Positions 3,374-36,722 are shown, counted from the first letter of the stretch. The stretch: 41,765 bases of DNA from Minisyncoccota bacterium (GCA_023135835.1 JAGLSI010000003.1:1-41765); one strand, 5' to 3'. The notes: generated by a model from the sequence alone, not told the origin. A program made the numbers and translations.

Positions 3374-4114
3374 ATGAGAAAAACAATAATATACAGAAAA
3401 AACGAATATTATCACATTTATAATCGGGGAGTTGATAAGAGAATTATTTTTACAGATAAATTTGATTTGCAGAGATTTTATCAAAGTATGGAAGAATTTA
3501 ATTCTGTTGAACCAATAGGGAGTATTTTTGAAAATCGTTTTAATTTAAAAAACAGAAAAGAATCGCTTGGGGGTGCTACCCCCAAGTATGGGAAATTGGT
3601 GGAAATTGTGGCTTATTGTTTAAATCCTAATCACTATCATTTAATACTAACTTCTTTAGTTGAAGGTGGAATAAGTGAATATATGAGAAGACTTAATTCT
3701 GGATATACTACTTATTTTAATCAAAGATATAAAAGAACAGGTTCATTATTTGGAGGAACTTTTAAATCTGTTTATATTAATTCAGATTCTTATTTAAGAT
3801 TTTTAAGTGTTTATGTAAATTTAAATTTTGAAGTGCATCAAAAGTTTCAAAATGTTAAAGATAAAAAATTATTTCATAAATCTAGCTGGGACGAATATAT
3901 AAAAGTTAAAATTATAAAAGGAAAAAGAGGTGAAGAGAATCAAGTCATTAATAATAAAAATGATATTTGTGATAAATCAATGATCTCGTCTCATTTTGAT
4001 TCAGTAGATCAGTATAAAAAATTTGCTTTAGAGTCGTTAAAGGACATAAAAGCAAAAAGATATAAAGATAGTGAGGTTATTAAGAAAACTTTTGAAACAA
4101 GTAAAGGGTTTTAA
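3374..4114 (+). mobile_element. REP-associated tyrosine transposase (RAYT/TnpA-REP, Y1 HUH family)
   Basis: Motifs YYHIYNRG, YCLNPNHYHL (HUH), YFNQRYKRTGSLF, YVNLN (candidate catalytic Tyr) and SSW; flanked by inverted palindromic repeats. Confidence 0.9.
3566..3586. repeat. REP-like palindrome copy 3 (in-frame inside RAYT, opposite orientation)
   Basis: CTTGGGGGT-GCT-ACCCCCAAG, translated as LGGATPK. Confidence 0.9.
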
Positions 4115-31553: not shown

Positions 31554-32600
31554 ATGTCAAAAGATTATTATAAAGTTTTAGGGGTTGAAAAAAAGGCTTC
31601 TAAAACTGAAATAAAAAAAGCTTTTCATAAATTAGCCCATAAATATCATCCTGATAAAGCTAATGGTGATGAAACTAGGTTTAAAGAAGCGAGTGAAGCT
31701 TATACTGTTTTATCTGATGATAAAAAAAGAGCTGAGTATGACACTTATGGACAAGCTTTTGGGGGAAATGGCGGTCCTCAAGGGGGTTTTGGTGGTTTTG
31801 GACAAGGAGCTCAGGGGTTTGATTTTGATTTAGGAGATATTTTCGGAGATATATTTGGAGGAGGTAGAAGTAGAGTAAAAAGAGGTTCTGATATTTCTGT
31901 TGATATTGAGGTTTCGTTTGCTGAAGCAGTTTTTGGGGTTGAAAGAAAGATAGTTTTAACTAAAAATTCTACTTGTTCTGTTTGTGAGGGAACAGGTGCA
32001 AAAAAAGGTTCAGAAATGGAAACATGTTCTTCTTGTGGGGGTAATGGAAAAATTCATGAGACTAAACAATCATTTTTAGGGTCTTTTTCAACAGTCAGGG
32101 TTTGTGATAGATGTCAGGGTAAGGGGAAAATTCCTAAGGAAAAATGTAAAGAATGTCGTGGAGTTGGTATTTTAAAAAAGCAAGAAAAATTTGAAATAAA
32201 AATACCAGCAGGGATTAATAATGGAGAAATGATTCGTTTAACAGGAGCTGGTGAAGCTATTCCTGACGGGAACCCAGGGGATTTATATATTAAGGTATAT
32301 GTTAAACCACATATTGTTTTTAAGAAACAAGGAAGTGATTTGATTATGAATTTGGGAGTTAAGTTGACAGATGCTTTGTTGGGGGCAGAGTATAATATAG
32401 CAACTTTAGATGGAAAAATAAAAGTTAAGATTCCAAAAGGAGTGAGTCATGGAGAGATTTTGAGAGTAAAAGATAAAGGGGTGCCTATTTCTGAAAGACG
32501 AAGAGGGAATTTACTTATAACTATAAATATAAAATTACCTAATAAATTATCAGGTAAAGCTAAAAAATTAATAGAAGAATTAAAAGGAGAAGGGGTTTAA
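31554..32600 (+). CDS. dnaJ: Chaperone DnaJ
   Basis: J-domain HPD, G/F region, four CxxCxGxG repeats. Confidence 0.97.
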   Translation: MSKDYYKVLGVEKKASKTEIKKAFHKLAHKYHPDKANGDETRFKEASEAYTVLSDDKKRAEYDTYGQAFGGNGGPQGGFGGFGQGAQGFDFDLGDIFGDIFGGGRSRVKRGSDISVDIEVSFAEAVFGVERKIVLTKNSTCSVCEGTGAKKGSEMETCSSCGGNGKIHETKQSFLGSFSTVRVCDRCQGKGKIPKEKCKECRGVGILKKQEKFEIKIPAGINNGEMIRLTGAGEAIPDGNPGDLYIKVYVKPHIVFKKQGSDLIMNLGVKLTDALLGAEYNIATLDGKIKVKIPKGVSHGEILRVKDKGVPISERRRGNLLITINIKLPNKLSGKAKKLIEELKGEGV

Positions 32601-32614
32601 TTAATTATTTTAAA

Positions 32615-32637
32615 AAGTAGCGCTCCGAGCGCTACTT
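32615..32637. repeat. AGTAGCGCT palindrome (intact copy)
   Basis: AAGTAGCGCTC-C-GAGCGCTACTT. Confidence 0.7.
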
Positions 32638-32650
32638 AGAATAGATAAAT

Positions 32651-32681
32651 AAAAAACACTCCCGACAAAAATCGTCGGGAG
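32651..32681 (-). terminator. Terminator for the minus-strand small ORF
   Basis: CTCCCGAC...GTCGGGAG stem with a U-run on the minus strand. Confidence 0.55.
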
Positions 32682-32705
32682 CTAGTGAAGAGCGGTATAA
32701 AAGAA

Positions 32706-32897
32706 TTATCTTCCGCTGGGAGGTCCTTGGTATTCCCATGGGTCCATTTGTTTTTGATCAGAGTTTTCTGGGAAAGGGGGTTTTGTTTGAAATTTTACAG
32801 GATTTTTTTCTTCAACAAGAGTCTCTGTTTCAACAGGAGTTTTTGTTAGAGTTTCTTTTCCGAAAGACTTCGGTTTCTTGCTAAAATATGGATCCAT
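32706..32897 (-). CDS. Small Pro/Thr/Lys-rich hypothetical protein
   Basis: 63 aa, AAAGGAGG 5 nt before the ATG, downstream terminator. Confidence 0.55.
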   Translation of the reverse strand: MDPYFSKKPKSFGKETLTKTPVETETLVEEKNPVKFQTKPPFPENSDQKQMDPWEYQGPPSGR

Positions 32898-33048
32898 TTT
32901 TTCCTCCTTTGTCTTTGTGAATTAAAAAATACAACTAAATTTAGAATACATAAAAAAGACTTAAAAAGCAAGGATTGTTGAATAATTGGTATTTTTGCAA
33001 GTTTTTTGGTAAAATTCCATAAGAGTAAAATATAATAATATTGTGCAT

Positions 33049-33242
33049 GCCAAGGTGAATGAATGCGAGTTTCGTAGTATTCATCTGGAGCGAAGCGGAA
33101 GAGGGTTTGGTAGACGCGCTAGTCGAGCGAATGAAAAATGAACGACTTCATTTTTCATCCGATTTTTCAGGAAGAAAAAATTTTCGTTATCAAATGATAG
33201 TGAGATAGAAAATAGGGCTAGTGGAGTTTCTTCGCTAATTCC
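33049..33242 (+). pseudogene. Fragmented duplicate of the 5' part of tRNA-Leu, interrupted by hairpin insertions
   Basis: Blocks GCCAAGGTG, GCGAA, TTGGTAGACGCGCTAGTC and CTAGTGGAG are collinear with the tRNA at 33277; same upstream TAATATTGTGCAT. Confidence 0.75.
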
Positions 33243-33276
33243 TAAAATAGTAAGTTTAAAATATAATATTGTGCAT

Positions 33277-33358
33277 GCCGAGGTGGCGAAATTGGTAGAC
33301 GCGCTAGTCTTAGGAACTAGTGGAGCAATCCGTGGGAGTTCAAGTCTCCCCCTCGGCA
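33277..33358 (+). tRNA. tRNA-Leu (TAG)
   Basis: GCCGAGG/CCTCGGC acceptor, CTAGT-CTTAGGA-ACTAG anticodon arm, variable arm, GTTCAAG; CCA not encoded. Confidence 0.96.
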
Positions 33359-33426
33359 CAAAAATAATGGAAAAAATACGATAGTATTTGTGTAATCTAT
33401 TTTAGGTTTTTTATCCTATTAAAAAT

Positions 33427-33891
33427 ATGAAAATAAGAAAAGCAAAAAAAGAAGATATTTTATCTATATTAAAGCTTGTAGAAAAAATGGTTGATTTTCA
33501 CTATGCTATAGATAAAATATATAAACCTTATAAAGAATATAAAGAATTAGAAAAATATTTTAAAAGTTTAATTAATACTAAAGATAATATTTTAGTTGTT
33601 GTTGAAAACGAAAATAAGATAATTGGTTTTTTAGAAGGAGGTATTGAAAAAGCTTCTAATGATGTGATGTTTGATAAAATAGGAACTATTAATAATATTT
33701 TTATTGAAGAAAAATTTAGAAATAAAGGAATTGCTAAAAAATTATTAAAATATATTTTTGAATATTTCAAATCAAAAAATATAGAATATATTCAAATAAG
33801 TACAGATGCTAGAAATAAAGTAGGGAAGGAATTTTGGAAGAAAAATAATTTTTTTGAATATCAAATAAAAATGTTAAGAAAATTAAAATAA
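33427..33891 (+). CDS. GNAT-family N-acetyltransferase
   Basis: IRKAKKED, IFIEEKFRNKGIAKKLL (motif A), FWKKNNF. Confidence 0.9.
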   Translation: MKIRKAKKEDILSILKLVEKMVDFHYAIDKIYKPYKEYKELEKYFKSLINTKDNILVVVENENKIIGFLEGGIEKASNDVMFDKIGTINNIFIEEKFRNKGIAKKLLKYIFEYFKSKNIEYIQISTDARNKVGKEFWKKNNFFEYQIKMLRKLK

Positions 33892-36603: not shown

Positions 36604-36635
36604 ATTTTTTAGTTCTTCGTGCTAGCACGATGTTG

Positions 36636-36722
36636 CGGAGAGAACAGGATTCGAACCTGCGGTGGAGTTTCCCCCACGCTTGCTTTCCAAGCAAGTACCT
36701 TAAACCACTCAGCCATCTCTCC
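36636..36722 (-). tRNA. tRNA-Ser (GGA)
   Basis: Minus strand GGAGAGATGGCTGAGTGG...CTTGC-TTGGAAA-GCAAG...long variable arm...GTTCGAATCC...CTCTCCG. Confidence 0.96.

Follow-up and report, generated by a model that had tools for sequence, protein, structure and literature searches.

How does a broken, hairpin-filled copy of a tRNA gene come to stand directly in front of an intact copy of the same gene? The question is raised by a 41,765-nucleotide (nt) stretch of DNA from a Minisyncoccota bacterium (GCA_023135835.1, JAGLSI010000003.1:1-41765), referred to below as the window. At positions 32986-33359, a live tRNA-Leu(TAG) gene is preceded by a truncated tRNA-Leu copy whose loops hold two structured inserts, the larger being a three-hairpin module of about 90 nt. 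On balance, and with confidence somewhat above even, we read the broken copy as the relic of a gene-less cassette, composed of the module, a palindrome, a promoter, and the 5' part of the tRNA, that regenerates the live gene in which it lodges. This report presents direct findings on the anatomy of the locus, its orthologues and its presence or absence in relatives, and the family, fold, and distribution of the module. The source genome (G000; 572.6 kb in 35 contigs, about 30% G+C, 90% complete) contains the window as contig C23; other genomes, contigs, and loci are cited by G, C, and L numbers.

Anatomy of the broken tRNA-Leu copy

All features of the locus lie on the plus strand, and tRNA positions are numbered on the live tRNA-Leu(TAG) gene, which has 83 positions and occupies 33277..33359 (ARAGORN; Rfam RF00005, 59.3 bits, E 3e-12). 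This downstream copy is the sole tRNA called by ARAGORN and Rfam. An earlier note on this DNA had described the upstream piece as a 5' tRNA duplicate with inserts, introduced by a duplicated leader, and repeat comparison bears out both points. Leader copy 1 (33020..33048) is a repeat of leader copy 2 (33251..33276). The leader and the start of the tRNA agree at 22 of 23 positions (96%; 33035-33057 against 33263-33285), and a second leader stretch agrees at 89% (33020-33037 against 33251-33268). The copy of tRNA positions 1-9 (GCCAAGGTG, 33049..33057) has A at position 4, where the live gene has G. It is followed by a 49-nt short-form module (33058..33106) that replaces gene positions 10-15, and then by a copy of positions 16-33, from the D loop to the 5' anticodon stem (33107..33124), which is identical to 33292-33309 (18/18). 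This D-arm 18-mer occurs twice in the window when up to 2 mismatches are allowed, and 0 times in 100 shuffles. The full module, with its hairpins P1, P2, and P3, takes the place of positions 34-40, anticodon included (33125..33217), and the copy resumes at 33218..33226 with positions 41-49, comprising the 3' anticodon stem and the start of the variable arm (CTAGTGGAG, equal to 33317-33325).

The anticodon-stem halves thus flank the large insert, as had been noted, with 18/18 and 9/9 positions retained, and the insert, earlier put at about 93 nt, is exactly 93 nt long. Gene positions 34-40 and 50-83 have no counterpart within 33049-33262 when searched by blastn-short with the live tRNA, and because positions 50-83 are unmatched near the upstream piece, the T arm and the 3' acceptor strand are missing, again as claimed. 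An outer 3' half for tRNA-Leu, sought by blastn-short throughout the source genome, was not found. The upstream copy lacks a complete cloverleaf (acceptor pairs, anticodon, and T arm), and for this reason a functional tRNA, or a pre-tRNA with removable introns, is rejected. The earlier note had parsed the first insert as a hairpin, GCGAA, and a further 12 nt; these sequences are present, but they are better taken as parts of a single 49-nt element (hairpin, GAGCGAAGCGGAAG, AGGG) than as separate items. Its remark that the inserts are too short for group I introns holds: a 93-nt insert falls below the length of about 200 nt or more expected of such introns, no Rfam intron family matches at E<=10, and a group I intron is rejected. 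An archaeal bulge-helix-bulge tRNA intron is likewise rejected, since positions 34-40 are replaced rather than interrupted. Two mechanical open reading frames (ORFs) over the region (49 aa and 92 aa) match no Pfam family at E<=1, and a coding reading is rejected on that basis.

Two promoter-like sites are predicted. The first, upstream of the broken copy (32986..33015), reads TTGGTA, an 18-nt spacer, and TG-TAAAAT, agreeing with 9 of 12 consensus positions and having TG ahead of the second hexamer; its sequence suggests promoter function. The alignment of relatives shows the same promoter-like block in G004, which carries a related broken copy, and in G005, which has none. Since the site is kept in this empty congener, the broken copy probably inherited the original tRNA promoter. 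The second site follows the broken copy: 33227..33250, read against relatives, appears to hold the decayed right arm of a palindrome and then a -10-like TAAAAT at 33243-33248, which would serve the live gene. In relatives the palindrome is CTAGTGGAG-TT-CTCCACTAG, retained in perfect form at L003-L008, where TGATATAGT comes after it. The palindrome may act as a terminator and the -10-like box as a promoter.

The arrangement itself is confirmed as real. The earlier note had advised checking reads against misassembly; Logan contigs agree with the window at 0 differences. They extend over 32400-33295 in one run and over 32400-33304 in another, and a 195-nt contig from a third sample covers 33079-33273; all are DNA contigs from 4 runs of one study, two of which may be the source sample, and no RNA run is listed as containing the locus. 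Stronger support comes from the independent assemblies of nine relatives, whose layout is identical. A chimeric join of reads from several metagenome tRNA-Leu loci could be suspected from the fact that the Logan contigs end inside the live tRNA, a community-wide repeat, but given the two runs that span the locus, the third sample, and the layout common to nine assemblies, such an artifact can be practically dismissed.

Filled and empty sites in relatives

An orthologue search of 40 relatives, in which the D-arm copy through the live tRNA was aligned, finds orthologous units in at least nine: G004 at 88%, and G010, G003, G001, G006, G007, G015, G011, and G030 at 71-84%. The 49-nt insert is also retained in G007. 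In two congeners (G005 and G002), the same upstream flank and promoter lead straight into an uninterrupted tRNA. Compared with this empty site, G004 has one extra block of about 188 nt. It is lodged directly behind gene position 33, with which the anticodon loop opens. The block consists, in order, of the module, the palindrome CTAGTAGAG-TT-CTCTACTAG, the -10-like TGATATAGT, a leader segment of 11 nt, and a copy of tRNA positions 1-33; the left arm of the palindrome is a repeat of tRNA positions 41-49. Because the block ends with leader and positions 1-33, it is bounded by a direct repeat of about 44 nt (the 11 leader nt plus positions 1-33). The window unit is 228 nt long, with repeats of 23, 18, and 9 nt, and differs from the G004 form in the A for G at position 4, the decayed palindrome arm, and the extra 49-nt insert. 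Read against G004, it is apparently a worn, older version of the same type of cassette.

Conservation between the window and G004 is uneven along the unit. The module agrees at 82 of 93 positions (88%) and the upstream flank at 19 of 34 (56%), with the promoter and leader at 42/57 and the spacer at 33227-33262 at 24/35. The changes within the module are mostly compensatory and fall in P1. As the source genome holds just two modules, which are 80% alike, gene conversion cannot account for this conservation. The comparison indicates that the module is under constraint, whether this serves the host or the spread of the module itself. The closing anticodon-stem helix follows one compensatory path, being G-C in the window, G.A in G006, and T-A in G007.

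These comparisons also bear on the simplest account of the locus, that a chance 5' tandem duplication decayed while filling with unrelated hairpins. The window copy does have the marks of decay, with its substitution, its degenerate palindrome, and its lost 3' part. The inserts, however, form a covarying family, the layout recurs at many anticodons and across the order, and the module is far closer to its G004 orthologue than is the flank. Plain decay is already contradicted by the orthologous units, the covariation, and the order-wide distribution, and we regard it as very improbable. The earlier suggestion of a graveyard that attracts hairpin insertions fares better in one respect, in that the inserts belong to a multi-copy family found beside tRNAs of many anticodons and also in 23S rRNA genes. 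As a picture of random pile-up it fails, for the whole unit is orthologous across genera and behaves as one block of about 188 nt.

Fold and family of the module

The inserts are not unique. A BLAST search of the source genome turns up the 93-nt insert a second time, on contig C33. There it occupies the D loop of a fragment from the 5' side of tRNA-Ile(TAT), and the live tRNA-Ile is located shortly downstream of this fragment. A covariance model of the module, designated R1, matches the window at 33128-33217 (91.7 bits, E 7.7e-18) and detects these two strong full-length copies in the genome.

For 26 aligned copies, the structure comprises 33 pairs (14 in P1, 7 in P2, and 8 + 4 in P3). In this alignment, 94.7% of cells pair, and double changes occur in 16 of the 33 pairs (93 cells); 0 of 500 shuffles reach any of five measures, and slid partners pair at 45-59%. 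When 56 distinct copies are aligned to the model, an alignment biased toward that model, double changes appear in 26 of 33 pairs. With pair 3-32 set aside (it alone contributes 13 A.C), there are 29 G.U against 3 A.C mismatches, an excess which argues that it is the tRNA-sense strand that folds, either as RNA or in the form of single-stranded DNA (ssDNA). Folded as RNA, the window sequence gives three hairpins with a centroid closed by the anticodon-stem halves (z -3.05). Rfam 15, scanned over 32800-33500 at E<=10 and over nine related loci at E<=0.5, has no family for the module or for the other cassette parts; tRNA and large subunit rRNA alone reach the gathering score in the loci searched. 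On the strength of its covariation, the module qualifies as a well-supported new structured-nucleic-acid motif.

The 49-nt element of the window represents a short form, in which a hairpin resembling P1 is combined with the GAGCGAAGCG motif from the loop of P3 and with AGGG. R1 misses this element, and its kinship to the full module lies in shared parts read by eye. Short forms occupy the D loops of tRNA fragments in the source genome (C7, Ser-TGA), in G007 (L008, Leu), and in G014 (L033, Ile), and BLAST copies occur in G012, G014 (two), and G006. The source genome contains four motifs of the GAGCGAAGCG type, and all of them lie on the strand of a tRNA that is at most 200 nt away.

A conserved fold is also what would be expected if the unit served the cell as a functional noncoding RNA on a tRNA scaffold, an option raised in the earlier note. 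The strong ancestral promoter would drive an RNA of about 190 nt, composed of the tRNA-Leu 5' part with its folded modules and ending at the palindrome, with a protein-binding, decoy, or regulatory role, for example, and a module within 23S rRNA would recruit the same partner. The covariation and sense-strand G.U pairs fit this account, as do the conserved promoter-like site, the better preservation of the module than of its flanks, the retention of the unit across genera, and the compensatory path in the closing anticodon-stem helix. The distribution of the module, described below, is harder to reconcile with it.

Distribution and genomic context

In a sample of 151 genomes spread over the order, R1 detects the module in 43, at 1-13 copies each. 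A sample of 150 other genomes of the phylum, of which 1 belongs to the same order, 5 to the same class, and the rest to other classes, gives 0. The module pattern has 0 matches in IMG/VR viral contigs, and a phage origin is rejected on that count. In general genome contigs, a loose form of the pattern recovers 80 loci, only 22 of which are true by R1. The titles of these 22 name Paceibacterota, Paceibacteria, Campbellbacteria, Parcubacteria, Patescibacteria, 'Saccharibacteria', or an unnamed bacterium, and no loose-pattern locus titled as another phylum is R1-positive.

Most copies are found near tRNA genes. A context census was made of 60 R1 loci of the order sample, with matches at E above ~1e-6 and a few others left out: 47 are no more than about 450-500 nt from a tRNA, another 5 are contained in 23S rRNA genes, and 8 are in neither setting. 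Twenty separate loci from BLAST matches were also read by eye, and 19 of them hold a tRNA. At 16 of the 20, the module lies within a 5' fragment of the adjacent tRNA, and 60-100 nt further on, after a repeat of the leader or promoter, comes the intact copy. The tRNAs concerned are Glu-TTC, Glu-CTC, Thr-TGT, Thr-CGT, Ile-TAT, Ser-GGA, Ser-GCT, Phe, Tyr, and Gln. The family is kept as a folded strand in tRNA-sense orientation, and in genes for stable RNAs it occupies the tips of helices, namely, the D and anticodon arms of truncated tRNAs and one site in the 5' domain of 23S rRNA.

At the remaining four eye-read loci, the module is inside a second type of cassette, located downstream of a tRNA. 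This downstream cassette consists of the tRNA, a terminator, an antisense tRNA 3' end, a structured stretch, and a direct copy running from the T loop to the 3' end. The structured stretch has the motifs GGGGTCGCGA..CTTAG..hairpin..CTAAG and no Rfam match, and in some cassettes it hosts the full module. Downstream cassettes were located in the source genome at C7:5555-5790, C19:2651-2850 (-), and C2:16670-16880, and in relatives at L003, L008, L010, L017, and L024-L026. A weak R1 match beside the tRNA-Trp on C19 (E 0.05) proved to be a downstream-type cassette with no full module and is rejected as a copy.

Other tRNA genes of the source genome and its relatives

Broken copies resembling that of tRNA-Leu, which the earlier note had suggested looking for, are found both beside other tRNAs of the source genome and in relatives. 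A blastn-short search with all 30 tRNAs of the source genome reveals partial copies beside at least 16 of them. Two tandem 5' units precede Glu-CTC; beside Ser-TGA, a 5' fragment carries the short-form module in its D loop, and a downstream cassette is present as well; cassettes of the downstream type are also found at Trp and Gly. Tandem units also occur in relatives (two at Glu-TTC in G001, two at Ser-GGA in G009, and an extra layer at Leu in G010), and fit repeated entry into a regenerated target. Within the window, the tRNA-Ser(GGA) gene at 36635-36722 (-) has no partial copies nearby, and its G009 orthologue has two module units upstream.

Relationships among the modules cross from one tRNA to another. 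The nearest relative of a module lies at another tRNA of the same genome in 15 of 48 cases and at the same tRNA of another genome in 9 of 48; the window module is nearest to the G004 Leu copy (88%). Identity within a genome reaches 96-98% in G014 (Phe, Ser, Arg, and Val loci) and 90-99% in G139. In G005, the left junction of the Thr-TGT module (…CAGTTG directly followed by AAGG…) is common to the Ile module, which fits copying through a D-arm block shared by many tRNAs. Presence and absence at orthologous sites, tandem units, similarity within genomes, and the shared junction together point to movement or copying of the cassettes.

The nested arrangement is most elaborate on contig C33 (3543-3860; L001:1042-1355), where the live tRNA-Ile(TAT) is enclosed between outer 5' and 3' tRNA-Ile parts. 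The acceptor strands of the outer halves pair at 7/7 and their anticodon stems at 5/5, and the halves differ from the inner gene at these places. The D loop of the outer tRNA-Ile holds the full module, and a third conserved insert in its anticodon loop carries the inner gene. The outer acceptor pair is retained in G014, and the outer halves no longer match in G005 and G009. At the Gln locus of G016, the live tRNA is found inside the P3 loop of the module, on a 12-bp extension stem.

Taken with the distribution, these loci reduce the case for a functional noncoding RNA. The unit is absent from two congeners in which the locus is intact, and the module from all but 43 of the 151 genomes of the order; its position shifts among the D loop, the anticodon loop, and a downstream cassette beyond the terminator; copies occur in tandem, and the tRNA parts are degenerate. 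A role for the unit in the cell is a possibility of which we are doubtful.

Modules in 23S rRNA genes

In five genomes, the module lies inside a 23S rRNA gene: L050 (G035), L147 (G087), L155 (G150), L157 (G120), and L168 (G049), at 50-89 bits. These insertions, from at least four families, share a single site about 200 nt from the 5' end of the gene, between the conserved flanks GGAGGAA and GATTCC. The site is presumably near helix 11 of Escherichia coli and, as we take it, differs from the classical helix-25 and helix-45 sites of intervening sequences (IVSs). In G035, which is 100% complete, the module-bearing 23S gene is the only 23S locus found, so the module must be compatible with a working ribosome, whether it is retained or removed. 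This locus also speaks in favor of the noncoding RNA weighed above. In the source genome, the 23S rRNA gene is unassembled, no tmRNA is called, and RNase P RNA gives a sub-threshold partial match (32 bits).

At these five loci, the family takes the form that defines an IVS, namely, a stem-loop inserted at the tip of a helix in a live 23S gene; the window copy itself lies in a tRNA fragment, outside rRNA. The whole family could consist of excisable sequences, either RNase III-type IVSs or products of some other cut-and-join process. The Leu fragment would then be a decayed former member, and module-bearing full-length genes (23S, and perhaps the outer tRNA-Ile of C33) would still mature. The recurrence of the module at one 23S site in five genomes, its presence at the single 23S locus of G035, the perfect pairing of the outer tRNA-Ile halves in G000 and G014, and the fact that modules are always closed by a helix are all consistent with excision. 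A published survey of rRNA genes in the Candidate Phyla Radiation (CPR) reports many short (<200 bp), ORF-less, unclassified inserts, 23S inserts among them, and takes them as probable RNase III-type IVSs (PMC11270868). On the other side, the outer tRNA-Ile halves are unpaired in G005 and G009, and no bulge-helix-bulge motif or intron family is present in the loci searched. As the Leu copy lacks the anticodon and the 3' third, nothing functional can be released from it. Excision as the origin of the broken Leu copy is unlikely.

Candidate enzymes

A cassette that regenerates its target tRNA calls integrative elements to mind. The locus has their direct repeat of a tRNA segment and regenerated gene; it has no integrase of its own, the unit being 228 nt long and its ORFs free of Pfam matches. 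Integrases of family PF00589, present in 1-3 copies in four relatives, have no link to cassettes and are rejected as the mover.

Two families remain as candidates, and as candidates only, for the enzyme. The first is that of Y1 transposases (Y1_Tnp; IS200/RAYT-like, ~230-260 aa), which occur in 91 of the 151 genomes of the order. The source genome has four such genes, one of them in the window at 3374-4114 (+), a 246-aa ORF with a Y1 transposase domain (Pfam E 3e-7) that scores 19 bits against the NCBIfam RAYT model, which has a cut-off of 80. Co-occurrence counts make the link to the module weak.

The second candidate is a small GIY-YIG nuclease. The source genome has three small GIY-YIG genes, one of which is nested at tRNA-Pro(TGG) (C2:19009-19380; L174:310-681). 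This nest comprises a promoter, tRNA positions 1-26, a 15-nt hairpin, an ORF, the leader repeat, and the live tRNA. The ORF, directly behind the hairpin, encodes a 79-aa single-domain GIY-YIG protein (PF01541, E 4e-18), and a 56-nt direct repeat (promoter plus positions 1-26) encloses the gene. The gene-carrying nest was found in 5 of 41 genomes searched (G000, G003, G008, G017, and G001), and its hairpin covaries (TCCGCC/GGCGGA against TCTGCC/GGCAGA). In G001, the nest contains two further ORF-less tandem units of 78 nt. Many other relatives match the tRNA-Pro part only; G005, the one that was read, has a plain gene. The nest may be an autonomous form of the cassettes. Nucleases of the Ssn family are single-domain GIY-YIG enzymes that cut ssDNA at hairpin repeats near their own genes (PMC11893778); by analogy, the tRNA-Pro protein could be Ssn-like, which we offer as a lead. 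As a separate observation, a 20-nt G+C-rich palindrome, CCTGCCTGCCGGCAGGCAGG, occurs in tRNA-fragment and cassette-hairpin loops (L005, L008, and L010), and its arms resemble the hairpin ahead of the GIY-YIG gene.

A proposed tRNA-regenerating cassette

In the reading favored here, the cassette would lodge in tRNA-Leu(TAG) just after position 33. Because it ends with a promoter, leader, and tRNA positions 1-33, its right end restores a complete tRNA; this rebuilt gene would be separately promoted, and the resident 5' part would be left stranded on the left, presumably without tRNA function. A single crossover between the resident gene and a small circle or taken-up fragment bearing promoter, 5' part, and cargo would yield the observed layout. 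Cassettes could come and go through recombination over the repeated part of the tRNA (Campbell-type, or with taken-up DNA), and blocks conserved among tRNAs in the D arm and T arm might allow them to spread from one tRNA to another. The enzymes to consider would be RAYT-like Y1 transposases and small GIY-YIG nucleases.

Several observations weigh against this account. No recombinase, transposase, or nuclease was tied to the cassettes in the searches made, and the source genome, at 90% completeness, has 0 PF00589 integrases. Of the 43 genomes with the module, 33 have Y1_Tnp genes and 10 show none, and such genes are also present in 58 of the 108 others, a comparison among kin that are not independent. 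Free or circular copies were not encountered, nor were newly inserted ones. The junctions read show neither terminal inverted repeats nor clean target duplications, and they are inexact, in that anticodon-loop bases are replaced, not split. The conservation of the module, the conserved promoter, and the closing helix fit a host function equally well, and since the sole 23S locus found in G035 bears the module, its presence cannot be put down to mere tolerance in dead DNA. That the pieces derived from the tRNA are identical to the live gene may be explained by gene conversion or by selection.

More tentatively, the cassettes may represent a new class of gene-less bacterial mobile element. Its module would colonize the helix tips of stable RNAs and would move at tRNAs as a gene-rebuilding cassette, by way of ssDNA or taken-up DNA. 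A nuclease that acts in trans and is specific for hairpins, either a small GIY-YIG or a RAYT-like Y1 enzyme, would move it, with the tRNA-Pro nest as its autonomous form. If the cassette reading is true, ultra-small CPR genomes that seem streamlined carry active, tiny, noncoding cassettes that remodel most of their tRNA loci, and CPR rRNA inserts and nested or broken tRNAs have at least one module in common. Because rRNA inserts and broken tRNAs share this module, one mechanism could explain both. Since contigs break and pseudo-tRNAs appear, tRNA annotation and genome binning would also be affected in these lineages. The module also poses a testable question as to its partner.

Comparison with known systems

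Phages, integrative and conjugative elements, and genomic islands that target tRNA genes, as well as gene-less cis-mobilizable element derivatives, carry a replacement piece of the tRNA. The cassettes resemble them in that a direct repeat of the tRNA bounds the insert, the gene is regenerated, and presence varies among close relatives. They differ in size and content, since the insert of about 190-230 nt has no integrase or any other gene. Entry takes place at the D and anticodon loops, and the main cargo is a conserved folded module. In contrast to integrative elements, in which the repeated part is usually the 3' end of the tRNA, the repeated part here is the promoter and the tRNA 5' part.

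Miniature inverted-repeat transposable elements have terminal inverted repeats and short target duplications. The inverted repeats of the module are internal hairpins, its two ends differ (GAATGAAA... and ...AATAGGG), and the junctions read show no constant duplication. REP/REPIN-RAYT, IS200/IS605, and Ssn systems (for the last, PMC11893778) share with the module short, noncoding, multi-copy hairpins and a strand-specific fold. Unlike REP/REPIN and IS200/IS605 elements, the module has no inverted doublets, terminal repeats, or demonstrated enzyme link, and its targets are genes for stable RNAs rather than the extragenic space occupied by REP/REPIN.

Archaeal disrupted tRNA genes reportedly include multi-intron and split forms and transposing introns (Fujishima 2010, cited in PMC10714607; Sugahara 2012, PMC3293823). 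The cassettes differ from archaeal tRNA introns in being bacterial, in having no bulge-helix-bulge motif, and in replacing the bases of the loop; moreover, the disrupted copy lacks its 3' part and always stands next to an intact one. The two have in common related inserts in the D and anticodon loops of many tRNAs, as well as tRNA genes broken by incoming DNA.

The inserts of CPR rRNA genes, described in two published accounts (PMC11270868; Tsurumaki et al. 2022, PMC9297842), provide a close parallel. Like them, the module occurs in 23S genes, in five genomes, and is short, ORF-less, hairpin-rich, patchy in distribution, and without an intron-family match; unlike them, it is found mainly in truncated tRNA gene copies. 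Non-intron inserts of CPR rRNA genes also contain GIY-YIG ORFs, as one of these accounts states, and the word tRNA occurs 0 times in its main text (PMC11270868). Copies of the module associated with tRNAs are undescribed in the literature searched, whose coverage was of articles rather than supplementary site lists. In a combination of features that appears undescribed in that literature, the cassettes seem closest in kind to rRNA intervening sequences, on the one hand, and to tRNA-targeting integrative elements, on the other.

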